DNA of 64,000 nucleotides from Gammaproteobacteria bacterium (GTDB lineage Bacteria; Pseudomonadota; Gammaproteobacteria; Steroidobacterales; Foliamicaceae). The DNA lies in the NCBI GenBank assembly GCA_965200225.1, contig CBDATM010000001.1, positions 1,681,182 to 1,745,181 on the forward strand, read 5' to 3'. Of the stretch, positions 8,063 to 27,633 are shown one piece after another (the first letter of the stretch is position 1; every line of letters begins with the position of its first letter). Below the pieces are notes generated by a model. That model was not told the DNA's origin. It did not search any database and saw only the letters and a list, made by a program, of their open reading frames with translations. The translations under genes were made by a program, and so were the position numbers.

Positions 8063-11060
8063 ACTCATGGGATGCGCCGCCAGCCAGCTTGCCGATCTGG
8101 TCGCAGATTGGGGAACTGCCGTGTCCTGTGCCGGGAATCAGCCAGTTGACCTCGGCGACCCGCAGTGGGTCTGGTTTGTTGAGAAAGGCGCCGTGGACCT
8201 GTTCCTGATCGAGCGTCAGGACGGGGTAGAGCGGGCGGCGCGCCAACACGCGCTGCGCGCCAGACCCGGGCAGCTCCTGCCAGGCGTTGCGCCGCAGGCA
8301 GGTCCCACCACCCTTGGCCTGATCGCCAAGGGCAGCCCGGAAACAGTATTGTGGCGCCTGCCTGCCGACCGCCTCACCGATATCGAACCGGCGACGGTGG
8401 CGGCGCGGACCGACGAGTGGCTGACAGGCATCTCCGAAATGCTGGTCCGGGACGTGCAGTACGCGCCGCGGGCGGACGCGCTCGTCGATCCGGGACAGTT
8501 CGTCGAGCGTAGCGAGGGCACGGTGTCGGCGCGGCGCGGAGTTGCCTGGGTGTCGGCGCCGCCAGCGGGCTCGGGACTGTTTCTGGGCGTAACGGACCCG
8601 GTCGCTGAGATGCCTAGGGCCAGACCCGGCGCACAGCGTCCGTCCGCCGCCGGAGACCCGCAGGAGAGCGCGCCGCAGTCCGAAGTCGCCGGAAGATTCG
8701 TGGCGCTCACGCCGTCCAGTTGGCTGACCCTGACTGGTCCGGTACGGCTATCAGCCTGCTCCACCGAGACCCTGGCGAAAGAAGGCCGCCTGCTGGCCGC
8801 CTTGGCGGATTTCTACGCCGTGGCATTGTCCGCGGAACGGCTCAATCGAATGCTGGCGGTAGTCGATCAGACAAATGAGGAACGAGCCAGAGTCAGCAGC
8901 CGGCGGACTGCGGAGGATAGTGCCCGCCGTCGGCTGCTCGGCGTGGGCGGGCGCTCGCAGGAATGGGATGCGACCGCGGGGGACTCCGTCCTCCTGGAAG
9001 CGCTGCGGATCGTCGGGCGTCACGCAGGCATTTCTTTCAGGATGTCCGAAGCAACGGAACTCACCAACCCCGTCGCTCTCCTGCGTTATATTCTGGATGT
9101 GTCCGGGGTGCGCGGCCGCCGGGTGCGACTGGTTGCCGAAGACCGCTGGTGGCTTGGCGACAGCGGTGCCATGCTGGCTTTCCGGGCCGGTGACGAGCAG
9201 CCCGTTGCGTTGCTGCCGGGCCCGCTGGGACGCTATCGGGAAGTTGACCCCGTAACGGGGCGTTGCAGGCCGATCTCAGCCGCGCGCGCGGCTGAGATCG
9301 GAGCCAGCGCGTGGGCGTTCCACCGCCCCCTGCCTGCAGGCCGCGTCGGCCTGTGGAAGCTGCTCCGGTTTGCAGGGCAAGGAATGCTCGGCGATGTTGC
9401 GCGATTCGTAGCCCCCGGGGTGCTCGGCGGACTCCTGATGGTGTTGCCGGCCGTGATGCTGGGCTTCGTAGTTGCCGACGTCATCCCTGCCGGCTCCAAC
9501 GGCCTGCTGCACACGGCGGCCGCCATGGTGGCGGCAGGCGCGATCATCGGGGGGTTGCTCCATCTTCTCCAGCAGATGGCGCTGATGCGCCTGGAAGGAC
9601 GAGCCACGTCGCGCGTTGAAGCCGCATTCTGGGACCGTCTGCTACGGTTGCCCGGGCGTCTGCTGCGCCGCTATCCGACTGGAGACTTGGCCATGCGCGG
9701 CATGACCTTCCAGCAACTCCGCGACGTTCTGCAAAACGTGGTGGGCAATGCGTTTCTGTCGGTGGTCTTTCTGCTGCCGGCCTATCTCGTCATCTATCTC
9801 TACGATGCCGCGCTCGGCGGCGTATCCCTGGCCTTCGGCATACTGTCGCTGTCGGTTACGCTGATCTTCGGGCTGCGGCAGTTCGCCCCTCAGGCTCGCG
9901 TGTTGCGGGCCACTCACCGAGTGGCTGCCGGGCTGTTCCAGCTTTTGAACGGCGTATCCAAGCTGCGCGCCGAGGGCGCGGAAGGTTCGGCGTTCGCGGC
10001 CTGGGCGCAAGATTACCGAAAGCAGAAAGAGGCCGAACTGGAGGTCGGCGCCTTGGAGGCGCACCTGCACGGGCTCGGAGCGGCCCTGCCTCTGCTGGCT
10101 GGAGCGGTCCTGTTGACGGAGGCGACGTTGACGGGCGCCGGAACGGTAACGATCTCCGACTTCCTGGTTGTTTTCGCAGCGTTCCTGGGGTTTCAGGCGG
10201 CGGCGACCCGCTTGAATGCATCGTTCACCTCGCTGGCCGCCCTCCGCCCGGCCTTGGAGCGAGTGCGGCCGTTCCTTGAGGAATCCGCCGCCGAAGACGC
10301 CGAGGGCGAACCCGTAGAACGCCTGGGCGGGGAGATTCTGTTCGACCACATCAGTTTCAGCTACGACCCGGACGGTCCGCTGGTTCTCGACGACGTTTCG
10401 ATGCGCGTCCAGCCTGGCGAGTTCGTCGCCATCGCGGGCGAATCGGGCGCAGGCAAGAGCACCCTTCTGCGGCTCGCGCTGGGCCTGGACCAGCCATCTG
10501 CCGGAGTGGTGTACTACGATGGCCGCGATCTGAGACAACTCAACGCGAGGCAGCTACGTCGGCAGCTCGGCGTTGTGCCGCAGGACGTGCGGCTCCAGCC
10601 GGTGGATATCCTGGACAATATTGCCGGAGCGCAGGAAGAGGAAGGCGCGAAGGATGTCTGGCAGAGCGCTTGGCAGGCGGCGCGGGTGGCGAACGTGGAC
10701 CGTACGATAGCAACGATGCCGATGGGGATGCTGACGGCGGTCGGGATCAGCGGCGCCGAGGCCTCGGGGGGCGAGAGCCAGCGCATCACCATCGCTGGCG
10801 CGCTGGCGCGCAACCCCCGCATCCTGCTGCTGGACGAAGCGACCAACTGGCTCGACAACGATAGCCAAGCCGCGGTAATGCGCAACCTTGCCGACCTGTC
10901 CGCCACGCGGATCATCATCGCCCACCGCCTCTCCACCTTGCGTCTGGTGGATCGCATCTACGTGATGCAGGCGGGGAAGGTGGTTCAGGCCGGAACATTC
11001 AAGGAACTGGAGGCAACCGAGGGAGCTTTCCGCGACCTTGTGCGCCGCCAGATGGCCTGA
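8046..11060 (+). CDS. Second NHLM-system ABC transporter (no peptidase; N-terminal cNMP-binding-like domain)
   Basis: 1004 aa from TTG 8046. An alternative ATG at 8067 lies 5 nt after the upstream stop. The long N-terminal extension is followed by a TM domain, Walker A GESGAGKST, signature ASGGESQRITIAGAL and Walker B ILLLDEATNWLD. Confidence 0.85.
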   Translation: MSAPVELMGCAASQLADLVADWGTAVSCAGNQPVDLGDPQWVWFVEKGAVDLFLIERQDGVERAARQHALRARPGQLLPGVAPQAGPTTLGLIAKGSPETVLWRLPADRLTDIEPATVAARTDEWLTGISEMLVRDVQYAPRADALVDPGQFVERSEGTVSARRGVAWVSAPPAGSGLFLGVTDPVAEMPRARPGAQRPSAAGDPQESAPQSEVAGRFVALTPSSWLTLTGPVRLSACSTETLAKEGRLLAALADFYAVALSAERLNRMLAVVDQTNEERARVSSRRTAEDSARRRLLGVGGRSQEWDATAGDSVLLEALRIVGRHAGISFRMSEATELTNPVALLRYILDVSGVRGRRVRLVAEDRWWLGDSGAMLAFRAGDEQPVALLPGPLGRYREVDPVTGRCRPISAARAAEIGASAWAFHRPLPAGRVGLWKLLRFAGQGMLGDVARFVAPGVLGGLLMVLPAVMLGFVVADVIPAGSNGLLHTAAAMVAAGAIIGGLLHLLQQMALMRLEGRATSRVEAAFWDRLLRLPGRLLRRYPTGDLAMRGMTFQQLRDVLQNVVGNAFLSVVFLLPAYLVIYLYDAALGGVSLAFGILSLSVTLIFGLRQFAPQARVLRATHRVAAGLFQLLNGVSKLRAEGAEGSAFAAWAQDYRKQKEAELEVGALEAHLHGLGAALPLLAGAVLLTEATLTGAGTVTISDFLVVFAAFLGFQAAATRLNASFTSLAALRPALERVRPFLEESAAEDAEGEPVERLGGEILFDHISFSYDPDGPLVLDDVSMRVQPGEFVAIAGESGAGKSTLLRLALGLDQPSAGVVYYDGRDLRQLNARQLRRQLGVVPQDVRLQPVDILDNIAGAQEEEGAKDVWQSAWQAARVANVDRTIATMPMGMLTAVGISGAEASGGESQRITIAGALARNPRILLLDEATNWLDNDSQAAVMRNLADLSATRIIIAHRLSTLRLVDRIYVMQAGKVVQAGTFKELEATEGAFRDLVRRQMA

Positions 11061-11094
11061 TCGGCCGCTGGCGGGGATCAGGAAGAATCAGGCC

Positions 11095-12240
11095 GTGGAC
11101 CAATGTGAGCGGTTGGACCTTGCCGAAGAGCGTCTTGTCCGCGAGGCAAATTCGCTGGGCGCGCTGCTCGACGGTCTGCGACAGCGCTGGTCTCCCGCAC
11201 TCATCAATGACACCGAATGGGCGCGGCTGATGGAGCGGGCGCGGGCGTTTCCCGCGACCATGGCCTCCTGCCTGTTCGGGTTCGAGTTGCCGCTCCATGA
11301 CGCTCGGCCGCGAGCGGACCTGGGCGTCGGTCTCAACAGCGGGAGTCGTTCGGCTGCATCGTTCTGCGGCGCGGCGCGGCCGGAAGACGAAGACGCGGAA
11401 CCTTGCAAGAGGCGTCTGGCCGCCCTGCTGGCCACGGCGCAACAGCCGGATTCCGCTCTCTGTCGAGTCGGCGGGCGGCGACCCCATTTCATGCTGGAGT
11501 ACGACATCGGGTCGGCTCAAGGCGCCGCCCCGGACCCGGGCATCTTCTTCTACCCGATGCAGGATCGCGTGACTGCGGGCGGTCCGGCAGGCGAGTGGCC
11601 ACAGGACCTCGGGGCGGCGGCCCGCTCCGTCGCTGCGGCTGTCGGCAGACCCATGGACGACCGTGCCGGTCGCCGGATTGAGCAGCTTTGCCTGACGATG
11701 CCGCCCGGCGCATCCATTGGCTCGGTGGGGGCCTTTCCGGTGCGCGGCGCCGACGTACGGTTGGCCGTGATGGGATTCCGGCGCGCAGACAAACTTGCCG
11801 CCTTCCTCGACCGCGCCGGATGGACAGGGCAGCGCGCGGTGGTTGCCGACACGGCATCATCAATGGCGCTGCTTGGCGCCCACGGACGCGTGGGGCTCAA
11901 CATTGATGTGCTTGCCGACGGCTTGGGGGCGCGGCTGGGACTGAGCTTTTACGTCGATCCGTGGCCTTGGGCCCGCCGCCAGTGGCGCGGGCTGCTTGAT
12001 TACGCGCGCCACACCGGCTTGGCGGTTCCGGCGAAACTGGACGCGCTCGGCGATGCACTGCCACCGATGGACATGCTCTTGGGTCGCAGCGGCTCCTTTC
12101 AACTCCTGCACGGCATCCACCACGTCAAATTCGTGGTGGATGCCGAACGCATCACCGAGATCAAGGCCTATGACCTCCTGATGCTGCGTCCTTTTCTTGA
12201 CCGGGCGGCGCAGCCGCCCGGTCAAGACCCCGTGCCCTAA
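11095..12240 (+). CDS. Hypothetical protein of the RiPP locus (no family recognised)
   Basis: The ORF is open from 11038. GTG 11095 is preceded by AGGAAG with a 9-nt spacer. No motif I can assign with confidence. Its stop codon overlaps the stop of the convergent precursor A (CTAA at 12237-12240). Confidence 0.5.
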   Translation: MDQCERLDLAEERLVREANSLGALLDGLRQRWSPALINDTEWARLMERARAFPATMASCLFGFELPLHDARPRADLGVGLNSGSRSAASFCGAARPEDEDAEPCKRRLAALLATAQQPDSALCRVGGRRPHFMLEYDIGSAQGAAPDPGIFFYPMQDRVTAGGPAGEWPQDLGAAARSVAAAVGRPMDDRAGRRIEQLCLTMPPGASIGSVGAFPVRGADVRLAVMGFRRADKLAAFLDRAGWTGQRAVVADTASSMALLGAHGRVGLNIDVLADGLGARLGLSFYVDPWPWARRQWRGLLDYARHTGLAVPAKLDALGDALPPMDMLLGRSGSFQLLHGIHHVKFVVDAERITEIKAYDLLMLRPFLDRAAQPPGQDPVP

Positions 12241-12509
12241 GAGCAGCCGCTAAAATAGCTGCCGGAGACGCTCTCGAGTTGTTCCTCGTCGAGGTCGGGC
12301 AGCGGCGGCAGGGCGAGATGGGCGTTTTGCATGTCGCCCTCATGCACATGCACATTCATGCCTTCGGGCACGTCAACGCCGAATTCGCGGCTGATCACGG
12401 CCTTGGGGTCGGCCACCAACTCCGCGCGGAATTCAACGCTCTCGATTGACTTCTCGACGATCTGCTTGTAGAGATTCTCCGTCGTGGTCATCATGCTTTC
12501 GATGCTCAT
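12237..12509 (-). CDS. NHLP-leader RiPP precursor A (core YFSGCS)
   Basis: 90 aa. The NHLP-type leader is SVEFRAELVADPKAVISREFGVDVPEGMNVHVHEGDMQNAHLALPPLPDLDEEQLESVSG, followed by S-YFSGCS-stop. The RBS is AAGGAG, 8 nt before the ATG. The gene is divergent from the cyclodehydratase. Confidence 0.9.
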   Translation of the reverse strand: MSIESMMTTTENLYKQIVEKSIESVEFRAELVADPKAVISREFGVDVPEGMNVHVHEGDMQNAHLALPPLPDLDEEQLESVSGSYFSGCS

Positions 12510-12796
12510 AATTTTTCTCCTTTATTCAGTATGTCAAATAAACAAGGCTCGGATTAACAAGCGCATGTCGCTTGCCAACATGCCTCGCGCCAAACCTCTG
12601 CCGCCTATCATACTCCATTCCACTCCTCCCCCGATGCTTGGCAATATCAACAAGGATCGCGCGGCAACGTGCTGAACGCAGGCGAACGCAGCGGACACTA
12701 TGCCGGGCATGTAATTAGGTGAGATAATCGGGTTGCGAGGAACCAAGGATTGGGGCCAGCAAGCGTCGCGCGCCAGACGGCGTGGAGGAGGAACCG

Positions 12797-15118
12797 ATGC
12801 AAAGACAGGTGTCAGAGGCGGGCTGGGGCGCAGGGCGGGGGATTCTGAAGCGGACCACCGCGGCCGACCGCGGGCTTGTGGAGACGCCGTCGCTGACCCC
12901 GCACCTTGATTTCTTTGCGGTTGAAGCAGGGCGGACGCTGCTGGTTTCCGAGAGCTTCAACACGTTGATCCGCGGGCAGGTCCACCAGGACCTGCTGCCG
13001 CTGCTCGACGGCCGCTCCCGGCAGGCCGTGGCGGCCGCGCTCGCCGGCCGCCACGCGGCCGCGGACGTGGCGTCGGCGCTGGCGTCGCTGGCGTCGCGCG
13101 GCTACGTTGTCTCGGGCGACTACGCCATGGACCGGGGCCGGGCGGCGTTCTGGTCGGCGCTGGGCGCCTCGCCGCGCTGGGCGGAGCAGCGCCTGCGGAA
13201 TGCGCGGGTGGCCGCGCTCGGCGACGAAGGGCGCCTTGCCCGGCGCCTCGGGGACCTGGGGGCGCCGGCCGCCGCCGACGGCCGGACTTTGCGGGTCACG
13301 GTCTGCGGCGACTATCTGGACAGCTGTCACGCCGGCCTCAACCGGCGCCGGATCGCGTCCGGCGAGCCGTGGATGCTGCTGGCGCCGGAAGGCGGCCGTC
13401 CGCTGTTTGGGCCGGTTTTCCAGCCAGCCGGGCAAGGACCGTGCTGGGCCTGCCTCGCCCATCGCCTGCGGGGGCATCGCGAAGTTCACGAGTTCGCGCG
13501 CCGGATTGCCGGCAGCGGCTGTGTTCCGGCGCCGAAGGCGTCCGAGCCGGTCGTGGTGGAAGCGGTGTACGATCTGGCCGCCGCCGAGATCGCCAAGTGG
13601 CTGGTCTTCGACTCGCTGGCGCCGCTGCACGAGAACGTCATCTCGCTGGACGTGCTCGGCTTGCAAAGCGCGCGGCATTTTCTGGCGCGCCGCCCGCAGT
13701 GCCGCGTTTGCGGGGACGCGGCGCTGTATCGCCCCGACCGTCCGCCAGCGCCCGTGCGGCTGCGGCCAAGTCCCAAGCGCGCGCGCAGCAGCGGCGGCGC
13801 GCGCTCGGTTCCTCCTGAAGCGACCCTGGCGCGTTACCGGCATCTGATCAGCCCGGTAACCGGCGTGGTTTCCTGGCTTGAGCGGGCGACCGGCGAGACC
13901 GATCCGTGGTCGCATGTGTACTACGCCCGGGGCACCTTGGCGCCGCAGGGCGTCAGCGACCTGGGAATGCTGCGCCGCCGCCTGGGGATGACCAGCGCAG
14001 GCAAGGGCAGCACCGCGAGGCAATCCCGGGCGAGCGCCCTGGGCGAGGCGGTCGAGCGCTGCAGCGGAGTCTTTCATGGCGACGAAATCCGCTGCCGCCG
14101 CAGTTACTCGGACTTTGTGGCGGCGGGCGGGTCCGAAGCCATTCACCCCAACGAAGTGCAGTTGTTCAGCGATCGGCAGTTCGACGAACGCGAACGCCGC
14201 AACGCCGCCGCCCGGCAGCACAACCTGATTCCGGAGCGCCTCGACCCCGACGCGAAAATCGACTGGTCGCCGGTCTGGTCGCTGACGCAGGAGCGCCACC
14301 GGTACCTGCCAACGTCGCTCTTGTACTACTTCGGAGCGCCGGCGAGCGCGTTCCAGTTTCGGGCTGATTCGAACGGTTGCGCGGCGGGCAACACCCTGGA
14401 AGAGGCGATTCTCCAGGGATTCTTCGAGCTGGCGGAACGCGACGCCTTCGCGATCTGGTGGTATAACCGGTTGCGCCTGCCCGGCGTGGACCTGGAGAGC
14501 TTCGCGGACGACTTCCTGTCGTCGGCAGCGGAATACTACCGCGGCCGCCGGCGCAGCCTCTGGGCGCTGGACGCGACCAGCGACCTCGGCATTCCGGTGT
14601 TCGTCGCCCTCTCCCGGCGCGCTGATCGCAAAACGGCCGGCCACGACGAGATCATGTACGGGATAGGGGCGCACGCCGAACCGCGCATCGCGATTCTGCG
14701 CGCCGTATGCGAACTGAATCAGATGATCTCCTTTTTCGACATCAGCGCCCCCAGGAGCGATGGCCGGTGGCGGCCCTGGGACCGGCCGGTCAAGCTGGCG
14801 GACAACCCGTGGCTGACGCCGGCTCCCGGCGTCGCCCTGCGCGGCCGCTGGGATCACGCCGTTGCCGCCGAAGATGACGCGCGGGAAGACATTGAGCGCT
14901 GCCGGGCGCTGGTCGAAGCCAAGGGGCTGGAGTTGCTGGTCCTCGACCAGACCCGGCCCGACATCGGCATGCCGGTGGCGCGGGTCATTGTGCCCGGCCT
15001 CCGTCACTTCTGGCGGCGGTTAGCGCCGGGCCGCCTGTACGATGTGCCGGTCAGGACGGGGCAGCGCCCCGCCCCGAGCTCGGAGGGCGATCTCAACCCC
15101 CTTCCGGTCCTGGTCTGA
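12797..15118 (+). CDS. Fused TOMM cyclodehydratase, copy 1 (E1/ThiF-like SagC-type N-terminus + YcaO/SagD domain)
   Basis: The ORF is open from 12782. ATG 12797 follows GGAGGAGGAA. The N-terminal half shows GPCWACLAHRLRGHREVHEF and RRPQCRVCGD. The YcaO half shows SAGKGSTARQSRASALGEAVERCSG and NGCAAGNTLEEAILQGFFELAERDAFAIWWYN. Confidence 0.9.
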   Translation: MQRQVSEAGWGAGRGILKRTTAADRGLVETPSLTPHLDFFAVEAGRTLLVSESFNTLIRGQVHQDLLPLLDGRSRQAVAAALAGRHAAADVASALASLASRGYVVSGDYAMDRGRAAFWSALGASPRWAEQRLRNARVAALGDEGRLARRLGDLGAPAAADGRTLRVTVCGDYLDSCHAGLNRRRIASGEPWMLLAPEGGRPLFGPVFQPAGQGPCWACLAHRLRGHREVHEFARRIAGSGCVPAPKASEPVVVEAVYDLAAAEIAKWLVFDSLAPLHENVISLDVLGLQSARHFLARRPQCRVCGDAALYRPDRPPAPVRLRPSPKRARSSGGARSVPPEATLARYRHLISPVTGVVSWLERATGETDPWSHVYYARGTLAPQGVSDLGMLRRRLGMTSAGKGSTARQSRASALGEAVERCSGVFHGDEIRCRRSYSDFVAAGGSEAIHPNEVQLFSDRQFDERERRNAAARQHNLIPERLDPDAKIDWSPVWSLTQERHRYLPTSLLYYFGAPASAFQFRADSNGCAAGNTLEEAILQGFFELAERDAFAIWWYNRLRLPGVDLESFADDFLSSAAEYYRGRRRSLWALDATSDLGIPVFVALSRRADRKTAGHDEIMYGIGAHAEPRIAILRAVCELNQMISFFDISAPRSDGRWRPWDRPVKLADNPWLTPAPGVALRGRWDHAVAAEDDAREDIERCRALVEAKGLELLVLDQTRPDIGMPVARVIVPGLRHFWRRLAPGRLYDVPVRTGQRPAPSSEGDLNPLPVLV

Positions 15119-15132
15119 AGGACGTTCTGCCG

Positions 15133-16515
15133 ATGCCCCTCAGCGACCTGCTTCACGAGCCGTCAATCCATGTTCGCACATGGGGCCGATCGGCGATCAG
15201 CCATTCTCGCTACAGCTCCTCGTTCGTAGGCTCGATCCGGAATAACCCGGTGCGGCTGGGTCCGTACGGCCGCGATTTCGAGGCGGCCCACAACCTGCTT
15301 GTGGCGGGCGCACCGCTTGCCGAACTCCACGCTGCCGTCGTCGAGGGGGGCAGCGTGGAGCGCGCCGCCGAGTACCTGGTTTGGCTGGAGCGGTTCAATC
15401 GGTTCGGGGGCATTGAGTTCCCGCTGGTCGACGAGACGGGCGAACGCGCCGTCATCCTCCCGCAGCAGGACACGTTCGTGCCTACCATGGCGCCGGACGC
15501 TCCGGCCGCCAGTACCTCGCTCGAACGCTTTGCCTTTTTGCGGCGCGGGAACGACGCGTGGCTGCTGGAGTCGCCCCTGGTTGGCGCGCAAGTTCAGCTT
15601 GTCGACCTCGCCGCGCTTGATAGCGATGTCGTCCGTCGCGCGCTTAACGGGATGGGCTTTCTCGATGCGGCCCGGCCGGACAGCGATGCGCGTCGTATTG
15701 CGCTCGCCCAGTGGGAGTTCCACGATCTGCTGTTCCACACCCGTGAGCGGCGCGGGTGGAATCGTGAACCGGCTGGCGCCGCGTTCCCGTTCATCGACCA
15801 GATCGAGCCGCTGCCTGCAGTGCGGCCGGCCTGGCCCGGCAAGCGCATCGCCCTGCCTCGCGCTCCGGATGCCGTCGCGGGGGAGCCCTTCGCGGCGGTG
15901 CTCGCACGGCGTTGCTCCGAGCGGGCGTACGATGCAGCCCACCCGATCACGCTGGCCGATCTCGGCGCGCTGCTCGACCGCGCCGCGCGCATCCGCTCGT
16001 CCATGGCGCATCCGGTACGCGACATCAAGGGTCGAACCGCCGAATTCGAAATCACTTTTCGTCCCTATCCTACGGGCGGCGCGAGCCACGAGCTGGAGAT
16101 CTATCCGATTGTGGACTTTTGCGTCGGACTCAAATCCGGTTGCTATCACTACGATGCGTCCGCCCACGAGTTGGTGCGGATCTCGGAGCGTACCCGGGAG
16201 ATCGACAAACTTCTGCGGTTTGCGCGGAGCGCAACGGCTGATCTGGCCCGGCCGCAGATTCTGCTGGGCGTAACGGCGCGCTTCGCTCGCGTCATGTGGA
16301 AGTACCGGGCGTTCTGTTACGCCATGATCCTGCGCGACACCGGGGCACTCTACCAGACGCTGTATCTCGCAGCCACCGAACTCGGCTTGTCGCCTTGCGC
16401 CATCGGCAGCGGCAACAGCCTCCTGTTCTCGCAAGTCACCGGTCTCGACCCGCTGATCGAGGGCAATGTCGGCGAGTTCATTCTCGGCGGCCGACCTGCA
16501 GCGTCCGCATCCTGA
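15133..16515 (+). CDS. SagB-type FMN-dependent azoline dehydrogenase, copy 1
   Basis: 460 aa. The nitroreductase-fold C-terminal half shows RRCSERAYD...FRPYPTGGASHELEIYP...LYLAATELGLSPCAIGSG. It starts 14 nt after the cyclodehydratase stop. Confidence 0.9.
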   Translation: MPLSDLLHEPSIHVRTWGRSAISHSRYSSSFVGSIRNNPVRLGPYGRDFEAAHNLLVAGAPLAELHAAVVEGGSVERAAEYLVWLERFNRFGGIEFPLVDETGERAVILPQQDTFVPTMAPDAPAASTSLERFAFLRRGNDAWLLESPLVGAQVQLVDLAALDSDVVRRALNGMGFLDAARPDSDARRIALAQWEFHDLLFHTRERRGWNREPAGAAFPFIDQIEPLPAVRPAWPGKRIALPRAPDAVAGEPFAAVLARRCSERAYDAAHPITLADLGALLDRAARIRSSMAHPVRDIKGRTAEFEITFRPYPTGGASHELEIYPIVDFCVGLKSGCYHYDASAHELVRISERTREIDKLLRFARSATADLARPQILLGVTARFARVMWKYRAFCYAMILRDTGALYQTLYLAATELGLSPCAIGSGNSLLFSQVTGLDPLIEGNVGEFILGGRPAASAS

Positions 16516-16604
16516 CACGCGGAACTGCCCGCAGAGCCGCAAGGATTCCAGGTTGCGGGCATTTCTACCTTGCGTTGACACTTCCCCCCGCAACCCGTAC
16601 AAAA

Positions 16605-16641
16605 ATCCGGCGGCCAACGCAAACGCTGCGGGCCGCCGGAT
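16605..16641. terminator. GC-rich hairpin, bidirectional terminator-like (copy 1 of a duplicated element)
   Basis: Perfect 11-bp stem ATCCGGCGGCC (16605-16615) / GGCCGCCGGAT (16631-16641). An A5 run lies on the left and TGATTT on the right. Confidence 0.6.
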
Positions 16642-16666
16642 TGATTTGGGAGTTGAAATAGGCGGA

Positions 16667-16713
16667 TTAGAACGCCGGCCGCCAAGTTGCCCGGAAGTAG
16701 TAGAAGCCGCCAT
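16667..16713 (-). pseudogene. 47-bp relic of the 3' end of the TonB-dependent receptor gene
   Basis: Identical to 21335-21381 (stop codon plus the last 15 codons of the receptor). Homology stops abruptly at 16713/16714. Confidence 0.85.
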
Positions 16714-16875
16714 ATTGTGCCCGGCCTCCGTCACTTCTGGCGGCGGTTAGCGCCGGGCCGCCTGTACGATGTGCCGGTCAGGACGGGGCAGCGCCCCGCC
16801 CCGAACTCGGAGGGCGATCTCAACCCCCTTCCGGTCCTGATCTGAAGGACGGCCTCCCGATAGCCTTCAGCGACC
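16714..16875 (+). pseudogene. 162-bp relic of the cyclodehydratase 3' end plus the sagB 5' end
   Basis: Colinear with 14987-15148. The first ~135 nt have 2 mismatches. The last ~25 nt (intergenic spacer and the first sagB codons) have 6 mismatches. There is no upstream coding context. Confidence 0.85.
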
Positions 16876-16901
16876 GATGAGAAACGCCCTGATTCTGCGA
16901 T

Positions 16902-17177
16902 CTAGCAGGAGCCGCAATGAATATAGCCGCCGGAGACGCTCTCGAGTTGTTCCTCGTCGAGGTCGGGCAGCGGCGGCAGGGCGAGATGGGCGTTTTGCAT
17001 GTCGCCCTCATGCACATGCACATTCATGCCTTCGGGCACGTCAACGCCGAATTCGCGGCTGATCACGGCCTTGGGGTCGGCCACCAACTCCGCGCGGAAT
17101 TCAACGCTCTCGATTGACTTCTCGACGATCTGCTTGTAGAGATTCTCCGTCGTGGTCATCATGCTTTCGATGCTCAT
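16902..17177 (-). CDS. NHLP-leader RiPP precursor B (core YIHCGSC)
   Basis: 91 aa. The leader is identical to precursor A up to LESVSG, followed by G-YIHCGSC-stop. Confidence 0.9.
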   Translation of the reverse strand: MSIESMMTTTENLYKQIVEKSIESVEFRAELVADPKAVISREFGVDVPEGMNVHVHEGDMQNAHLALPPLPDLDEEQLESVSGGYIHCGSC

Positions 17178-17464
17178 AATTTTTCTCCTTTATTCAGTAT
17201 GTCAAATAAACAAGGCTCGGATTAACAAGCGCATGTCGCTTGCCAACATGCCTCGCGCCAAACCTCTGCCGCCTATCATACTCCATTCCACTCCTCCCCC
17301 GATGCTTGGCAATATCAACAAGGATCGCGCGGCAACGTGCTGAACGCAGGCGAACGCAGCGGACACTATGCCGGGCATGTAATTAGGTGAGATAATCGGG
17401 TTGCGAGGAACCAAGGATTGGGGCCAGCAAGCGTCGCGCGCCAGACGGCGTGGAGGAGGAACCG

Positions 17465-19786
17465 ATGCAAAGACAGGTGTCAGAGGCGGGCTGGGGCGCA
17501 GGGCGGGGGATTCTGAAGCGGACCACCGCGGCCGACCGCGGGCTTGTGGAGACGCCGTCGCTGACCCCGCACCTTGATTTCTTTGCGGTTGAAGCAGGGC
17601 GGACGCTGCTGGTTTCCGAGAGCTTCAACACGTTGATCCGCGGGCAGGTCCACCAGGACCTGCTGCCGCTGCTCGACGGCCGCTCCCGGCAGGCCGTGGC
17701 GGCCGCGCTCGCCGGCCGCCACGCGGCCGCGGACGTGGCGTCGGCGCTGGCGTCGCTGGCGTCGCGCGGCTACGTTGTCTCGGGCGACTACGCCATGGAC
17801 CGGGGCCGGGCGGCGTTCTGGTCGGCGCTGGGCGCCTCGCCGCGCTGGGCGGAACAGCGCCTGCGGAATGCGCGGGTGGCCGCGCTCGGCGACGAAGGGC
17901 GCCTTGCCCGGCGCCTCGGGGACCTGGGGGCGCCGGCCGCCGCCGACGGCCGGACTTTGCGGGTCACGGTCTGCGGCGACTATCTGGACAGCTGTCACGC
18001 CGGCCTCAACCGGCGCCGGATCGCGTCCGGCGAGCCGTGGATGCTGCTGGCGCCGGAAGGCGGCCGTCCGCTGTTTGGGCCGGTTTTCCAGCCAGCCGGG
18101 CAAGGACCGTGCTGGGCCTGCCTCGCCCATCGCCTGCGGGGGCATCGCGAAGTTCACGAGTTCGCGCGCCGGATTGCCGGCAGCGGCTGTGTTCCGGCGC
18201 CGAAGGCGTCCGAGCCGGTCGTGGTGGAAGCGGTGTACGATCTGGCCGCCGCCGAGATCGCCAAGTGGCTGGTCTTCGACTCGCTGGCGCCGCTGCACGA
18301 GAACGTCATCTCGCTGGACGTGCTCGGCTTGCAAAGCGCGCGGCATTTTCTGGCGCGCCGCCCGCAGTGCCGCGTTTGCGGGGACGCGGCGCTGTATCGC
18401 CCCGACCGTCCGCCGGCGCCCGTGCGGCTGCGGCCAAGTCCCAAGCGCGCGCGCAGCAGCGGCGGCGCGCGCTCGGTTCCTCCTGAAGCGACCCTGGCGC
18501 GTTACCGGCATCTGATCAGCCCGGTAACCGGCGTGGTTTCCTGGCTTGAGCGGGCGACCGGCGAGACCGATCCGTGGTCGCATGTGTACTACGCCCGGGG
18601 CACCTTGGCGCCGCAGGGCGTCAGCGACCTGGGAATGCTGCGCCGCCTCCTGGGGATGATCAGCGCAGGCAAGGGCAGCACCGCGAGGCAATCCCGGGCG
18701 AGCGCCCTGGGCGAGGCGGTCGAGCGCTGCAGCGGAGTCTTTCATGGCGACGAAATCCGCTGCCGCCGCAGTTACTCGGACTTTGTGGCGGCGGGCGGGT
18801 CCGAAGCCATTCACCCCAACGAAGTGCAGTTGTTCAGCGATCGGCAGTTCGACGAACGCGAACGCCGCAACGCCGCCGCCCGGCAGCACAACCTGATTCC
18901 GGAGCGCCTCGACCCCGACGCGAAAATCGACTGGTCGCCGGTCTGGTCGCTGACGCAGGAGCGCCACCGGTACCTGCCAACGTCGCTCTTGTACTACTAC
19001 ACAGCGTCAGAGAGCGCGTCTCATTTTCAGGCCGATCCCAACGGTTGCGCGGCGGGCAACACCCTGGAAGAGGCGATTCTCCAGGGATTCTTCGAGCTGG
19101 CGGAACGCGACGCCTTCGCGATCTGGTGGTATAACCGGTTGCGCCTGCCCGGCGTGGACCTGGAGAGCTTCGCGGACGACTTCCTGTCGTCGGCAGCGGA
19201 ATACTACCGCGGCCGCCGGCGCAGCCTCTGGGCGCTGGACGCGACCAGCGACCTCGGCATTCCGGTGTTCGTCGCCCTCTCCCGGCGCGCTGATCGCAAA
19301 ACGGCCGGCCACGACGAGATCATGTACGGGATAGGGGCGCACGCCGAACCGCGCATCGCGATTCTGCGCGCCGTATGCGAACTGAATCAGATGATCTCCT
19401 TTTTCGACATCAGCGCCCCCAGGAGCGATGGCCGGTGGCGGCCCTGGGACCGGCCGGTCAAGCTGGCGGACAACCCGTGGCTGACGCCGGCTCCCGGCGT
19501 CGCCCTGCGCGGCCGCTGGGATCACGCCGTTGCCGCCGAAGATGACGCGCGGGAAGACATTGAGCGCTGCCGGGCGCTGGTCGAAGCCAAGGGGCTGGAG
19601 TTGCTGGTCCTCGACCAGACCCGGCCCGACATCGGCATGCCGGTGGCGCGGGTCATTGTGCCCGGCCTCCGTCACTTCTGGCGGCGGTTAGCGCCGGGCC
19701 GCCTGTACGATGTGCCGGTCAGGACGGGGCAGCGCCCCGCCCCGAGCTCGGAGGGCGATCTCAACCCCCTTCCGGTCCTGGTCTGA
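17465..19786 (+). CDS. Fused TOMM cyclodehydratase, copy 2
   Basis: Offset by exactly 4,668 bp from copy 1. The protein is identical except RRRLGMT>RRLLGMI and the patch FGAPASAFQFRADS>YTASESASHFQADP. Confidence 0.9.
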   Translation: MQRQVSEAGWGAGRGILKRTTAADRGLVETPSLTPHLDFFAVEAGRTLLVSESFNTLIRGQVHQDLLPLLDGRSRQAVAAALAGRHAAADVASALASLASRGYVVSGDYAMDRGRAAFWSALGASPRWAEQRLRNARVAALGDEGRLARRLGDLGAPAAADGRTLRVTVCGDYLDSCHAGLNRRRIASGEPWMLLAPEGGRPLFGPVFQPAGQGPCWACLAHRLRGHREVHEFARRIAGSGCVPAPKASEPVVVEAVYDLAAAEIAKWLVFDSLAPLHENVISLDVLGLQSARHFLARRPQCRVCGDAALYRPDRPPAPVRLRPSPKRARSSGGARSVPPEATLARYRHLISPVTGVVSWLERATGETDPWSHVYYARGTLAPQGVSDLGMLRRLLGMISAGKGSTARQSRASALGEAVERCSGVFHGDEIRCRRSYSDFVAAGGSEAIHPNEVQLFSDRQFDERERRNAAARQHNLIPERLDPDAKIDWSPVWSLTQERHRYLPTSLLYYYTASESASHFQADPNGCAAGNTLEEAILQGFFELAERDAFAIWWYNRLRLPGVDLESFADDFLSSAAEYYRGRRRSLWALDATSDLGIPVFVALSRRADRKTAGHDEIMYGIGAHAEPRIAILRAVCELNQMISFFDISAPRSDGRWRPWDRPVKLADNPWLTPAPGVALRGRWDHAVAAEDDAREDIERCRALVEAKGLELLVLDQTRPDIGMPVARVIVPGLRHFWRRLAPGRLYDVPVRTGQRPAPSSEGDLNPLPVLV

Positions 19787-19800
19787 AGGACGTTCTGCCG

Positions 19801-21183
19801 ATGCCCCTCAGCGACCTGCTTCACGAGCCGTCAATCCATGTTCGCACATGGGGCCGATCGGCGATCAGCCATTCTCGCTACAGCTCCTCGTTCGTAGGCT
19901 CGATCCGGAATAACCCGGTGCGGCTGGGTCCGTACGGCCGCGATTTCGAGGCGGCCCACAACCTGCTTGTGGCGGGCGCACCGCTTGCCGAACTCCACGC
20001 TGCCGTCGTCGAGGGGGGCAGCGTGGAGCGCGCCGCCGAGTACCTGGTTTGGCTGGAGCGGTTCAATCGGTTCGGGGGCATTGAGTTCCCGCTGGTCGAC
20101 GAGACGGGCGAACGCGCCGTCATCCTCCCGCAGCAGGACACGTTCGTGCCTACCATGGCGCCGGACGCTCCGGCCGCCAGTACCTCGCTCGAACGCTTTG
20201 CCTTTTTGCGGCGCGGGAACGACGCGTGGCTGCTGGAGTCGCCCCTGGTTGGCGCGCAAGTTCAGCTTGTCGACCTCGCCGCGCTTGATAGCGATGTCGT
20301 CCGTCGCGCGCTTAACGGGATGGGCTTTCTCGATGCGGCCCGGCCGGACAGCGATGCGCGTCGTATTGCGCTCGCCCAGTGGGAGTTCCACGATCTGCTG
20401 TTCCACACCCGTGAGCGGCGCGGGTGGAATCGTGAACCGGCTGGCGCCGCGTTCCCGTTCATCGACCAGATCGAGCCGCTGCCTGCAGTGCGGCCGGCCT
20501 GGCCCGGCAAGCGCATCGCCCTGCCTCGCGCTCCGGATGCCGTCGCGGGGGAGCCCTTCGCGGCGGTGCTCGCACGGCGTTGCTCCGAGCGGGCGTACGA
20601 TGCAGCCCACCCGATCACGCTGGCCGATCTCGGCGCGCTGCTCGACCGCGCCGCGCGCATCCGCTCGTCCATGGCGCATCCGGTACGCGACATCAAGGGT
20701 CGAACCGCCGAATTCGAAATCACTTTTCGTCCCTATCCTACGGGCGGCGCGAGCCACGAGCTGGATATCTATCCGATTGTGGACTTTTGCGTCGGACTCA
20801 AATCCGGTTGCTATCACTACGATGCGTCCGCCCACGAGTTGGTGCGGATCTCGGAGCGTACCCGGGAGATCGACAAACTTCTGCGGTTTGCGCGGAGCGC
20901 AACGGCTGATCTGGCCCGGCCGCAGATTCTGCTGGGCGTAACGGCGCGCTTCGCTCGCGTCATGTGGAAGTACCGGGCGTTCTGTTACGCCATGATCCTG
21001 CGCGACACCGGGGCACTCTACCAGACGCTGTATCTCGCAGCCACCGAACTCGGCTTGTCGCCTTGCGCCATCGGCAGCGGCAACAGCCTCCTGTTCTCGC
21101 AATTCACCGGTCTCGACCCGCTGATCGAGGGCAATGTCGGCGAGTTCATTCTCGGCGGCCGACCTGCAGCGTCCGCATCCTGA
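19801..21183 (+). CDS. SagB-type dehydrogenase, copy 2
   Basis: Offset by 4,668 bp from copy 1. There are two substitutions (ELEIYP>ELDIYP, SQVTGL>SQFTGL). Confidence 0.9.
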   Translation: MPLSDLLHEPSIHVRTWGRSAISHSRYSSSFVGSIRNNPVRLGPYGRDFEAAHNLLVAGAPLAELHAAVVEGGSVERAAEYLVWLERFNRFGGIEFPLVDETGERAVILPQQDTFVPTMAPDAPAASTSLERFAFLRRGNDAWLLESPLVGAQVQLVDLAALDSDVVRRALNGMGFLDAARPDSDARRIALAQWEFHDLLFHTRERRGWNREPAGAAFPFIDQIEPLPAVRPAWPGKRIALPRAPDAVAGEPFAAVLARRCSERAYDAAHPITLADLGALLDRAARIRSSMAHPVRDIKGRTAEFEITFRPYPTGGASHELDIYPIVDFCVGLKSGCYHYDASAHELVRISERTREIDKLLRFARSATADLARPQILLGVTARFARVMWKYRAFCYAMILRDTGALYQTLYLAATELGLSPCAIGSGNSLLFSQFTGLDPLIEGNVGEFILGGRPAASAS

Positions 21184-21272
21184 CACGCGGAACTGCCCGC
21201 AGAGCCGCAAGGATTCCAGGTTGCGGGCATTTCTACCTTGCGTTGACACTTCCCCCCGCAACCCGTACAAAA

Positions 21273-21309
21273 ATCCGGCGGCCAACGCAAACGCTGCGGG
21301 CCGCCGGAT
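21273..21309. terminator. Bidirectional hairpin between sagB-2 and the convergent TonB receptor
   Basis: Same 11-bp stem as 16605-16641. On the minus strand the hairpin is followed by TTTTTGT. Confidence 0.65.
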
Positions 21310-21334
21310 TGATTTGGGAGTTGAAATAGGCGGA

Positions 21335-23899
21335 TTAGAACGCCGGCCGCCAAGTTGCCCGGAAGTAGTAGAAGCCGCCATTAAACCCGAACGGCGATTG
21401 CTCCGGGTAGATCAGACCGGCTACTTCGCCGTTGGGGTTGGTGCTGGGGTACTCGTCAAAGGCGTTTTGCAGGCCCACCAGAAGCGAGAGGGATTCGTTC
21501 ACTTCGTAAGACACCTCCAGATCGACCAGAACGCTCGGATCCGGCTCGAACGCTACCGAACCGTCGTTGGTGGGAGCATCGTAGTAGGCCCCGTAATACC
21601 GCGCACGCGCCATGAAGCGCCACGGCCCCATCAAGTGCGTCCAGGTTCCCGTCAGGCGGAAATCCGGGCGCCCTTCTTCGATTTGCCGCCGACGGTTTTC
21701 CGACGTGAAGTCGGGGTTGTACTTGGTGAGATCAATATTCGACCAGTTACCCACCACGGTGATGTTGGAAGAACCGCTACCCAGGTCAAACGGCCAGCTG
21801 GCGACCAGATCGATGCCGGAGGCCTCCACGGTCTGCAGATTCGAGAAGAATCGCACCGAGGTAAAGCTGCTTGCGTCGGACACGCCGGCAGCCAGCAATG
21901 TCTGAATGTCGGATTCGGTAAGAGTGAAGCGACTGGTGAAGGAGATCCGGTCCTCAATCTCGATGTTGTAATAGTCCAGCGTTACGTTCAGGTCACCGGT
22001 AGTAAACACTAGGCCCAGGGTTACGTTCACCGACTCCTCGGGGGTTAGGGGCTGGGCACCCTTCTGCTGCGCCACCGGATTGGTGGGCGGCAAGGTGGCG
22101 ATGTCGGCCAAGGCCCCCATGTTGAACTCCGTGGTTACATTGCGCAGGTTCGCCTGCCCCGAAGTGGGAACCCGAAAGCCGGTGCTCACTGCGCCGCGTA
22201 CCGCTACCGCGTCGGAAATCTGGAAGCGCGCCGCCAGCTTTCCATCCAGGGTGTCGCCGAACTCCGAATAATTCTCGAATCGCACGGCGGCGCCCAGCAG
22301 CAACTGCTCGCTTACGTTCGACTCAAGGTCAACATAGGCGGCGTAAGCGCTGATCGTGCTCTCGCCGGCATCGCCCGGCTGGAATCCGGGAAATCCGTTG
22401 GAGCCAACGCCAAAGCCCTGCGAGGCCAGACCGTATTCGAGGTTGGGATCGATATAGAAAGAGTTGGGATCGCCGTTTTCGATCTTGAAGGTTTCATCAC
22501 GAGCTTCCAGTCCCATGGCCACATTCACCGGTTCCGACATGCCGATATCCAGCGGTTTGGACAGATCAATGTTGACCACCCGGTCGATTTCCGTATAGGC
22601 GCCGGCGTTGTAGTAGACGGGAATGTCATTGCGCAGCGCCAGCAATTGCGGGTTGATCGTGTTGTAGATGTAGAACTGGGCATAGCTGCGCCCGGCTGTC
22701 ACGCTGAGGTCATAGAACCAACCGTTGTCCATTTCGCCGCGCAGCCCGCCCGCCGCTGCCAGATCATGAATATAGCCGCCGAACTGAGGAGTGAATCCGC
22801 CGGGGAATTTTTCGATCAGCGAATAGCAGTTCGGGTCGGTGCGAATGGCAGCCAGAGCGGCGGCATCCGGCACGTTGTTCACGATCCGCACCACCGGGCA
22901 GTTGCCGGTTCCGTCGCCGGAGAGATCCGCCACCTTGACCGTGGACGTTCCGTCGGGCAACACCGGCCCCTTGAACACGCCGCCTCGAGTGTGCGGATTC
23001 CGAAAGTAGAAGCCGCCTTCCACCTGGCGCTTGGACCAGTTTCCGAAAGCGTAGAACTCCTGACTGTTGCTCATATCCGCTCCGAGATTGGCCATGAACT
23101 TGAAATCGTCGGAAATTTCCGGAGCGCCCCAGATCTGCGCCGGAACGCGCACATGGGTATTGCCTGCGTCAATCAGCGCTTGAGCATCTGCGCGCTGCGC
23201 GCTGCGGCTGGTGGGGTCGGACTCCTTCCATTCGAAGCTCAGGTTGGCGAAGCCGCGATCGGTAAGCGGCAGGCCCAGGTTGCCGGCCAGTGTCAATGCG
23301 TCTCCGTCTCCCTCGAAGTGCGTGCCCCACTTGGCGTCCAGGACTGCGCCTTCGGCATCCTCCTTCAATACGAAATTCATGATGCCGGCAATGGCGTCGG
23401 AGCCGTATTGCGCCGATGCGCCGTCGCGCAGCACCTCAAGCCGGTCCAGGGCGATGGCGGGAATGGCGGACAGGTCAGGGCCTTGCGAACCGCCGGATAT
23501 GCCTGCGCCCAGCAGCGCGATAACCGCCGCACGGTGCCGCCGCTTTCCATTCACCAGCACCAGCGTGGCGTCCGGCGGGAGCGAGCGAAGAGTGGCCGGA
23601 CGCACCAGCGTGGCCGCGTCGCTGATCGGTTCCTGGCTGACGCCATAGGAAGGAACCAGCGCGGAAATCAGGTTGTCCATGTCGGAATCGCCATGGGCGA
23701 GGAACTCGTCCCCGCCGATCACGTCCACCGGCACCGGCGAGTCGGCCGCCGAGCGGTCGCGGCGCCTGGAGCCTACAACCACGATTTCTTCCAGGGCTTC
23801 GGCGGATTGCTGGCTCTGGGAAAGCGCAGGCGCGGCTGGGATTGTTGCGAGAACAAGAACAATCGGCAGGGTGGCTAATCTATTTATATTGAAAAACAT
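21335..23899 (-). CDS. TonB-dependent outer-membrane receptor
   Basis: 854 aa with a signal peptide (MFFNINRLATLPIVLVLATIPAAPALS). The plug domain shows EEIVVVGSRRR...DSPVPVDVI...LEVLRDGASAQYGSDAIAGIMNFVLK. The C-terminus is YFRATWRPAF, ending in a terminal Phe. Confidence 0.9.
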   Translation of the reverse strand: MFFNINRLATLPIVLVLATIPAAPALSQSQQSAEALEEIVVVGSRRRDRSAADSPVPVDVIGGDEFLAHGDSDMDNLISALVPSYGVSQEPISDAATLVRPATLRSLPPDATLVLVNGKRRHRAAVIALLGAGISGGSQGPDLSAIPAIALDRLEVLRDGASAQYGSDAIAGIMNFVLKEDAEGAVLDAKWGTHFEGDGDALTLAGNLGLPLTDRGFANLSFEWKESDPTSRSAQRADAQALIDAGNTHVRVPAQIWGAPEISDDFKFMANLGADMSNSQEFYAFGNWSKRQVEGGFYFRNPHTRGGVFKGPVLPDGTSTVKVADLSGDGTGNCPVVRIVNNVPDAAALAAIRTDPNCYSLIEKFPGGFTPQFGGYIHDLAAAGGLRGEMDNGWFYDLSVTAGRSYAQFYIYNTINPQLLALRNDIPVYYNAGAYTEIDRVVNIDLSKPLDIGMSEPVNVAMGLEARDETFKIENGDPNSFYIDPNLEYGLASQGFGVGSNGFPGFQPGDAGESTISAYAAYVDLESNVSEQLLLGAAVRFENYSEFGDTLDGKLAARFQISDAVAVRGAVSTGFRVPTSGQANLRNVTTEFNMGALADIATLPPTNPVAQQKGAQPLTPEESVNVTLGLVFTTGDLNVTLDYYNIEIEDRISFTSRFTLTESDIQTLLAAGVSDASSFTSVRFFSNLQTVEASGIDLVASWPFDLGSGSSNITVVGNWSNIDLTKYNPDFTSENRRRQIEEGRPDFRLTGTWTHLMGPWRFMARARYYGAYYDAPTNDGSVAFEPDPSVLVDLEVSYEVNESLSLLVGLQNAFDEYPSTNPNGEVAGLIYPEQSPFGFNGGFYYFRATWRPAF

Positions 23900-23966
23900 G
23901 AGTCGTTCTCCGATTTCGAAGTAATGGGAATAAAGCCAACTTCCATGAAAGGCACATAGATAAGGG

Positions 23967-23996
23967 AAAAAAATTATAGCCGCAAATATATGCGGC
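23967..23996 (-). terminator. Rho-independent terminator of the CDF gene
   Basis: The minus-strand reading is GCCGCA-TATATT-TGCGGC followed by TATAATTTTTTT. The stem is at 23979-23984 / 23991-23996 and the A-run on the plus strand at 23967-23973. Confidence 0.7.
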
Positions 23997-24014
23997 TTGG
24001 GCTGTCAGAGTCTG

Positions 24015-25022: not shown

Positions 25023-25027
25023 AGGCG

Positions 25028-26547: not shown

Positions 26548-26621
26548 GAAGCGGAATGATAGGGGAAACGCCGGGTGATACTATCCGTGCTTCCTGCTTA
26601 CGGTTCTCTGTCAGATTCTCC

Positions 26622-27563: not shown

Positions 27564-27566
27564 GCC

Positions 27567-27615: not shown

Positions 27616-27633
27616 CTGATTCTCTATCAGTTC

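Follow-up and report, generated by a model that had tools for sequence, protein, structure and literature searches.

Nested recombination scars of different age between the two cassettes of an NHLP-leader TOMM cluster

The 206-bp spacer between two near-identical cassettes of a gammaproteobacterial RiPP cluster is built from gene remnants. It is best explained as debris of two recombination events that lie far apart in time, and has no evident function. The remnants form a nested pair of scars, one ancient and travelling with the cluster, the other recent and local, and are a new example of well-known processes. They appear to record how the cluster grew, i.e. by repeated duplication of a partial cassette (precursor and cyclodehydratase without sagB); one such join survived transfer between Acidobacteriota and Gammaproteobacteria, and gene conversion seems to keep the cassettes near-identical whilst the core peptides and one enzyme loop stay distinct.

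Cassette architecture and content of the spacer

The window, i.e. the whole stretch of 64,000 nucleotides analysed here, derives from a gammaproteobacterium near 'Ca. Foliamicus' (UvrB 93-94%). Its cluster has the components of the NHLP-leader TOMM type: NHLP precursors, a 778-aa cyclodehydratase that fuses E1-like and YcaO domains (TIGR03882 and TIGR03604) in the manner of the LynD/TruD-type heterocyclases (E=2e-161 to LynD), a 460-aa SagB dehydrogenase (TIGR03605) and, upstream of the cassettes, an NHLP ABC1, ABC2 and HlyD export set (TIGR03796/03797/03794, respectively), the matches to which are top hits but lie just under or under the trusted cut-offs. A conserved 400-aa protein without annotation is also encoded upstream of the cassettes.

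Table 1. Features of the duplicated cassettes, of the spacer between them and of the adjacent zinc island (window coordinates).
Feature	Position	Strand	Description
Precursor A	12237..12509	-	NHLP-leader RiPP precursor, 90 aa, ends ...ESVSGS/YFSGCS (stop), TIGR03793 E=1.3e-18
Repeat copy 1	12252..16713	+	precursor-A leader, cyclodehydratase-1 (12782-15118), sagB-1 (15133-16515), terminator hairpin, receptor stub
Divergent patch	14331..14371	+	41 bp, 13/21 inter-copy mismatches; copy 2 = 18999-19039
GC-rich hairpin	16604..16641	.	between sagB-1 and receptor stub; copy of 21272-21309
Receptor 3' stub	16667..16713	-	47/47 identical to 21335-21381
Illegitimate join, recent	16713..16714	.	receptor nt -47 joined to cyclodehydratase nt -132
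Cyclodehydratase/sagB stub	16714..16875	+	162 bp, 154/162 identical to 14987-15148 (= 19655-19816), E=2.8e-69
Old join	16875..16879	.	sagB nt 16, GAT, toward precursor stop codon
Orphan spacer	16879..16901	.	23 nt, GAGAAACGCCCTGATTCTGCGAT, flanked GAT...GAT, absent from L002
Precursor B	16902..17177	-	91 aa, ends ...ESVSGG/YIHCGSC (stop), TIGR03793 E=1.8e-19
Repeat copy 2	16920..21381	+	precursor-B leader, cyclodehydratase-2 (17450-19786), sagB-2 (19801-21183), hairpin, 47 nt of intact receptor gene (its 3' end)
TonB-dependent receptor, intact	21335..23899	-	854 aa, Plug + barrel; source of stub
CDF transporter, ZitB-like	24015-25742		zinc island
ZnuA	26556-27563		zinc island
Second receptor	27553-30330		zinc island

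Self-comparison by blastn (positions 11500-24500 as query against the whole window) and column-by-column comparison identify a direct repeat of 4462 bp, ungapped, with 21 mismatches (99.53% identity) and a period of 4668 (Table 1). Only the last ~5 codons of precursor A (12237-12251) fall outside this repeat, and 16902-16919 contains the core codons specific to precursor B. The two copies are near-identical and in direct orientation, as expected of a duplication; however, they are not related as simple head-to-tail units, as 12046-12251 has no homology to 16714-16919. A single simple tandem duplication is therefore insufficient; either a second cassette was already in place, or a further step followed.

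These comparisons reproduced all coordinates of a preliminary description of this DNA, including those of the 162-bp stub. The hairpin it had reported after sagB-1 is real: folding gave -38 and -40 kcal/mol (z=-3.7 and -4.0), and a U-run lies 3' of the hairpin on the minus strand. These properties identify the hairpin as a terminator common to the receptor and sagB genes, which has been copied with the rest of the repeat. The adjoining receptor stub, at the coordinates originally given, spans the stop codon and 44 coding nt (14 complete codons plus 2 nt of the 15th, encoding ...GGFYYFRATWRPAF and the stop); it lacks a start codon and is non-functional. Identity to the receptor gene ends sharply after 16713/21381, and the earlier proposal that the copied segment ended inside this gene stands, with the stub placing that end 47 nt in.

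The receptor itself belongs to the adjacent zinc island and not to the RiPP cluster. Neither a receptor nor a CDF homologue was found beside the cluster in the related loci (L002-L051), and in two related gammaproteobacterial genomes (L098, L099) the homologues of the receptor (81% identity) are surrounded by unrelated genes, with no 'empty site' definable. Because the receptor adjoins the cluster in this genome only, the event that generated the receptor stub happened in place here. This corrects an easy mis-annotation, in that the receptor is an adjacent gene into which the last duplication cut, and not a conserved part of the cluster; a metallophore reading resting on receptor adjacency is weak.

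The second remnant, the cyclodehydratase/sagB stub, has three parts: the terminal 132 nt of the cyclodehydratase gene with its TGA (16843-16845), the 14-nt intergenic spacer and nt 1-16 of sagB, the start codon of which is mutated from ATG to ATA (16860-16862). Its identity to the intact sequence, interrupted by eight mismatches (16805, 16840, 16852, 16853, 16856, 16862, 16863 and 16866), is stepped, falling from 98.5% (135/137) to 76% (19/25) as the preliminary description had indicated. The orphan stretch beyond the stub amounts to 26 nt (16876-16901) when the first GAT is included, and searches of the window and of the fetched loci L001-L097 for its source returned chance matches of <=12-15 nt only.

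Two joins of different age

The join between the two remnants is blunt. Neither parent sequence can be extended across 16713/16714, which is a novel join with 0 nt of microhomology; the preliminary description had positioned the switch correctly, and had allowed it up to 2 nt. The metagenome collection contains no match to a 26-mer that spans this join, which is known from one assembly only.

Comparison with relatives dates the other join. The closest SagB among 5.8 billion proteins has 76% aa identity, so that there is no sister strain for comparison; it is encoded on a 2.09-Mb contig of a Vicinamibacterales MAG (locus L002, identical to L008), where cyclodehydratase and sagB are about 82-83% identical to those of the window at the nucleotide level. 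A genome scan identified nothing closer than this locus, and a scan of metagenome contigs by SagB yielded relatives at <=53% identity only; no genome with the intermediate arrangement preA-cycA-stub-preB-cycB-sagB-receptor was found in either scan. Relatives of the cluster come from sponge or coral MAGs of several phyla. As their hosts belong to different phyla whilst cyclodehydratase and sagB retain this level of identity, the window and L002 clusters are related through horizontal transfer among sponge/coral symbionts.

The L002 locus is collinear with the window across the older join, i.e. the precursor is followed by the reverse complement of sagB nt 1-16, of a 14-nt spacer and of 490 nt of the cyclodehydratase 3' end, and a single blastn alignment spans precursor, join and stub (L002 7359-7796 against window 17170-16714). 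On the plus strand the window reads ...ATAGCCTTCAGCGACC/GAT/(23 nt)/CTAGCAGG; L002, in the same sense, reads ...ATGGCCTTCAGCGATC/AAT/CTAGCAGC, in which sagB nt 16, AAT and CTA (the precursor stop) succeed each other. Homology to functional sagB (...GACCTGCTTCAC...) breaks at the identical nucleotide in both, 3 bases from the precursor stop, and the two joins differ solely by the 23-nt indel flanked by GAT...GAT, which is either an insertion in the window lineage or a small deletion in L002. The L002 stub also retains ancestral states that have been lost from the functional sagB start of L002 (the short 14-nt spacer, TTCAGCGAYC), and an A at 16840 is common to both stubs. The comparators with the old join are L002/L008 and a low-coverage variant, L003, only.

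Since the L002 stub is longer (490 against 162 nt) and no receptor is present at that cluster, the stub/precursor join is older than, and independent of, the receptor join. The preliminary description had assigned the stub/precursor-B join to the history of this array; the presence of this sagB nt 16/precursor-stop join in L002/L008, in another phylum and beside a 490-nt stub, shows that it is not a product of the recent history of the array. The longer L002 stub supports the view of that description that the cyclodehydratase/sagB stub predates the large repeat. It had further proposed two or more illegitimate or unequal recombination events, and at least two non-homologous joins are indeed recorded here. 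Rearrangement and decay are evident in the L002 locus too, where YcaO is truncated at its N-terminus and the extra precursors are frameshifted. An origin of this arrangement from a window-like array by one inversion was considered and set aside as unnecessary, since only the right of the two breakpoints fits.

Gene conversion and the order of events

Within the cyclodehydratase part of the stub (132 nt), the stub and the intact gene of the same genome agree at 130/132 positions in the window and 123/133 in L002, compared with 111-116 between genomes, and 13 site patterns group by genome against 1 that joins the two stubs. A join that is shared, combined with sequence that groups by genome, implies gene conversion, and homogenisation of cassettes A and B by this process is our best reading of the sequences. 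Paralogues are accordingly more similar than orthologues, and the repeat is a mosaic, i.e. a largely homogenised tract that retains old divergence in a short patch and loses identity toward the edges of homology, e.g. at the left repeat end, where identity falls via 12260 and 12254 into diverged but alignable cores (...SVSGS YFSGCS and ...SVSGG YIHCGSC, each followed by the stop). Conversion tracts need flanking homology and fade toward its edge, which accounts for the step from 98% to 76% in the stub; this step had previously been read as prior divergence of the sagB start in a dead cassette, whereas it is the pattern expected of a conversion edge, with sites divided 13:1. Given that the cyclodehydratase part of the stub groups by genome, a common origin of the window and L002 stubs would be argued by the identical breakpoint and the few shared states.

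The mismatches between the repeat copies are also informative. Thirteen fall in the 41-bp divergent patch (copy 1 YYFGAPASAFQFRADS, copy 2 YYYTASESASHFQADP) and 8 in the other 4421 nt. The patch is in frame, changes 8/14 residues and carries synonymous differences in addition; it corresponds to a variable loop of the YcaO domain directly N-terminal to the conserved SNGxAAGNTLEEA motif (about residues 516-529 of LynD). To judge from these letters, the patch is retained old divergence or the product of a separate conversion, and not of point mutation after a recent copy. Together with the diverged but alignable cores it indicates that cassettes A and B are old paralogues kept alike, and not merely a fresh duplicate. 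The complete lack of mismatches between 14372 and 16097 fits a recently copied right-hand part; nevertheless the mismatch density to the left of 14372 (4 singles in 2070 nt) does not differ to a statistically significant extent from that to its right (2 in 2342 nt), so that insertion of 1.7 kb and overwriting of 4.46 kb are not separable.

We consider a history in three steps, comprising an old partial duplication, conversion, and recent local copying with an illegitimate join, to be the probable one, its order and mechanism being reconstructed from the sequence relationships, the blunt join and the old join shared with L002. In the first, ancient step, a unit of precursor (on the minus strand) and cyclodehydratase would have been duplicated in tandem in an ancestor resembling the 'srp' proteusin/azole clusters of sponge symbionts, with breakpoints at the precursor stop codon on the left and after nt 16 of sagB on the right. 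The product would have been X - preA - cycA - (sagB nt 1-16) / preB - cycB - sagB, with the join at 16875/16876; the same sequence would result if a full cassette had been duplicated and one sagB then deleted. In the second step, conversion would have homogenised A and B, except for the core codons, the 41-bp patch in the YcaO loop and the final ~25 nt before the homology edge, which lie beyond the reach of conversion tracts.

The third step would be recent, following the arrival of the cluster beside the receptor, and would have copied the 3' end of cycB, sagB, the terminator and 47 nt of the receptor behind cycA. One side of the copied segment would be homologous, within the cyclodehydratase, and the other a blunt illegitimate join (16713/16714) into cycA nt -132. 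This could have occurred by a single template switch, or by a simple tandem duplication of 16714-21381 from which homologous recombination between cyclodehydratase copies then deleted a segment; either route would yield exactly the observed sequence. Cassette A would thereby have gained its own sagB, with the receptor stub marking the reach of the copied segment. Most simply, the old cassette A never had, or long ago lost, a sagB of its own, and the stub is best read, from the alignments, as the displaced original 3' end of its cyclodehydratase.

The preliminary description instead envisaged a third, older cassette between the present two that was largely deleted to leave the 162-bp stub, and this, combined with a separate duplication ending in the receptor, is the strongest of the alternatives, albeit an unlikely one. 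It is consistent with a stub that predates the large repeat and whose sagB part is the more diverged, and the cluster family has had larger arrays than the present one of two units, since L002 has extra cyclodehydratase fragments and precursor pseudogenes. However, it invokes more events than are needed: the precursor-A core and the stub form the two ends of one old cassette A, which explains both non-repeat flanks of copy 1 and renders a deleted third cassette unnecessary. In addition, the stub/precursor join is common to L002 and hence not recent, and identity of 98.5% in the cyclodehydratase part is hard to reconcile with a remnant that died long ago, unless conversion is assumed here as well.

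Retention of the stub as a functional element, whereby the 3' UTR of the precursor-B mRNA would pair with the cyc-sagB mRNAs and so couple expression of precursor and enzymes, appears improbable from the layout of the locus. No hairpin lies between precursor B and the stub, the next terminator-like hairpin on that strand being 16641-16604, such that a predicted transcript reading on through the stub and the receptor stub would include 162 nt complementary to each of the cyc-sagB junctions; the order of precursor then antisense stub is also conserved in L002. This geometry is, however, automatic when the duplicated unit has its precursor on the opposite strand, and the complementarity (98.5% then 76% in the window, 88% in L002) is explicable by gene conversion. 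It is lowest (76%) right over the sagB ribosome-binding site and start codon, whilst the L002 stub, in its decaying locus, is only 88% identical to its own gene. No stub accompanies precursor A, nor is there one in the clusters L004 and L005.

An assembly artefact, i.e. a mis-join or mis-resolved tandem repeat in the MAG, might be suspected from the confinement of 16713/16714 to one assembly and the unmatched 26-mer across it, and is improbable. The copies are distinguished by 21 fixed differences, including the coherent in-frame 41-bp patch; overlap-based assemblers, to our knowledge, make no joins with 0 nt of shared sequence, unlike the blunt join seen here; and the stub/precursor join was recovered in independent assemblies of other samples (L002 and L003). 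A Logan contig (L001, SRR33991082), which corresponds to 11478-12553, matches the left end (X/precursor-A core) at 100%; this 1076-bp contig provides an exact match to the precursor A protein, and there is no exact match on record for precursor B, SagB, the receptor or the cluster representative P0001. Sister assemblies from the same project carry coverage labels (3x to 2935x) and some are megabase-scale or circular, which would suggest long-read assembly; reads of that kind readily cross a repeat of 4.7 kb.

Equally improbable is one complex event, our first hypothesis, in which precursor, cyclodehydratase, sagB and 47 nt of receptor were duplicated and the junction filled by a 162-bp templated insert and 26-44 nt of untemplated filler (FoSTeS/MMBIR): template switching is known to yield complex junctions with nearby-templated inserts, and the short nearby-derived segment, the blunt 16713/16714 join and the orphan 26-nt spacer on its other side resemble the blunt or micro-homologous joins of that process, but the insertion in one step was rejected because L002 has the same stub/precursor join with a 490-nt stub and no receptor, so that the 'insert' predates the junction and the two did not arise together, a fresh copy would not carry 6/25 mismatches at one end, and the diverged precursor-A core and the YcaO patch would be left unexplained.

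Relation to known systems

According to the reviews by Reams and Roth, bacterial duplication joins reportedly form by illegitimate (RecA-independent) recombination, followed by RecA-dependent expansion and contraction. The window resembles such join points in its multi-kb direct repeat, its novel 0-nt join, the dead stub of a neighbouring gene and the possibility of homologous remodelling, and differs in having two joins of very different ages, 162 bp apart, of which the older travelled between phyla.

A second parallel is offered by the precursor families of cyanobactins and prochlorosins, which are multi-copy genes with conserved leaders and hypervariable cores. As in these concerted RiPP families, leaders and enzymes of the window are about 99.8% identical within the genome whilst the cores differ, and paralogues are closer than orthologues; the same leader/core pattern is seen in L004, where three tandem precursors have near-identical leaders and differing cores. 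In contrast to those families, homogenisation here covers a 2.9-kb unit of precursor and cyclodehydratase, and spares one 41-bp enzyme loop.

The spared patch and the core peptide are between them what distinguishes the two cassettes, and the patch is the most interesting by-product of the analysis. The 14-residue loops that it encodes (FGAPASAFQFRADS and YTASESASHFQADP), which adjoin the SNGxAAG motif, raise the possibility, doubtful at present, that the cassettes are co-specialised enzyme/substrate pairs, in which selection would match each cyclodehydratase to its own core and so spare both core and YcaO loop whilst conversion erases every other difference. Were this so, the loop would be a determinant of core-peptide selectivity in LynD-type heterocyclases, and co-specialisation would also account for the recent gain by cassette A of its own sagB. 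For the engineering of substrate specificity, the spared YcaO loop offers a lead that could be tested cheaply.

The window also shares features with the NHLP/TOMM export system that Haft et al. are said to have described in 2010 and with the srp proteusin clusters, namely a LynD-like fused cyclodehydratase, SagB, NHLP ABC1/ABC2/HlyD proteins and relatives in sponge/coral MAGs. The srp clusters, as far as the account in Nguyen et al. 2021 (JACS, via bioRxiv 10.1101/2023.06.09.544420) extends, encode NHLP precursors with short Cys-rich cores, a YcaO cyclodehydratase and a brominase, and occur across sponge-symbiont phyla, a known spread into which the cross-phylum relation between the window and L002 fits. 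The NHLP leader of the window has an (L/I)xEEQL-type motif (LDEEQL) and its Cys-containing cores are 6-7 residues long, as in srp; unlike srp, the cores YIHCGSC and YFSGCS lack the hallmark terminal Trp, and scanning of the cluster ORFs gave no family match to a halogenase, the other srp hallmark being a peptidyl brominase. The duplicated cassette, and a position abutting the TonB receptor and zinc island in this genome alone, are further differences. Cores in L004 and L005 end ...CW.

Cyclodehydratases without sagB are also present in two other relatives. The second, sagB-less copy of L015 retains homology for about 88 nt of sagB, whereas that of L014 ends 12 nt past the stop; both arose independently, as analogues of the old duplication in the window.

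The YcaO-loop patch and precursor variation

The two 4.46-kb copies differ at 21 positions, of which 13 fall within a single patch of 41 bp. In a YcaO loop of variable sequence, directly ahead of the conserved SNGxAAGNTLEEA motif, this patch replaces eight out of 14 residues. Core peptides aside, nothing else of substance distinguishes the two cassettes.

Features located in the window
Feature	Position	Strand	Sequence
YcaO-loop patch, copy 1	14331-14371		FGAPASAFQFRADS
YcaO-loop patch, copy 2	18999-19039		YTASESASHFQADP
400-aa ORF	11038-12240	(+)	

Immediately before the core, precursor A carries Gly-Ser (12252-12262) whereas precursor B carries Gly-Gly (16920-16930), as do the precursors of the related loci L002 (the closest, from a Vicinamibacterales MAG), L004 and L005; the precursor A core (YFSGCS) is one residue shorter than that of precursor B (YIHCGSC). 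In L004 three precursor genes lie in tandem (12373-14717), with leaders that are identical or one to three residues apart and with differing cores (VAGNCW, GNMGCW and GRWGFCG); a pattern of conserved leader and variable core is common to this array and the window. A methyltransferase is encoded between sagB and the precursors in L004.

The upstream reading frame and left end of the array

The 400-aa ORF adjacent to precursor A has no match in Pfam or NCBIfam; homologues at 25-50% identity occur in many related clusters, where they adjoin precursors or the cyclodehydratase. Its stop and that of precursor A overlap by 4 nt, and a strong hairpin (12198-12227) lies inside its last codons. The junction between this ORF and the end of precursor A is also present in an independent short assembly, a Logan contig of 1076 bp (L001, SRR33991082) identical at 100% to window positions 11478-12553, which covers ~300 nt of the repeat and ends, at 12553, in the precursor promoter.

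The TonB receptor neighbourhood

Within 21335-30330 lie two TonB receptors, the first of them clipped by the duplication, together with a ZitB-like CDF transporter and a ZnuA-type zinc-binding protein, and none of the related clusters among L002-L051 has a receptor nearby. Because the clipped receptor thus keeps company with zinc genes, and none lies near those clusters, its adjacency to the RiPP genes looks accidental and is no indication of a metallophore uptake system.

The cyclodehydratase/sagB boundary and decay in L002

A breakpoint at the boundary between the cyclodehydratase gene and sagB is found in the window, L002, L014 and L015, and this recurrence likely reflects survivorship of those duplications that retain an intact cyclodehydratase. 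L002 contains a perfect 76-bp tandem duplication (9863-9938 = 9939-10014) across the functional cyclodehydratase stop and the sagB start. Second cyclodehydratase copies with no sagB behind them occur in L015 (17840-20297) and L014 (15829-19657), from other MAGs (Vicinamibacterales and Gammaproteobacteria), at 90.5% and 93.7% identity to the respective first copies; that of L015 ends ~88 nt into a sagB stub.

Decay is evident at the L002 locus. Its intact precursor is flanked by two inverted cyclodehydratase fragments, which share 88-89% identity with the functional gene, and two further precursor copies (11406-11681 and 13191-13345) are both frameshifted; at 8126, the first ~190 residues are missing from the YcaO protein. 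A low-coverage variant of L002 7636-9895 from a different sample (L003 6620-6900; ENA ERZ25068762, a 3x contig) has lost the YcaO gene, which could be a real deletion mediated by the inverted repeat or else a fold-back read artefact. The deletion extends about equally far to either side of the axis of the inverted cyclodehydratase repeat, and a short palindromic junction remains.
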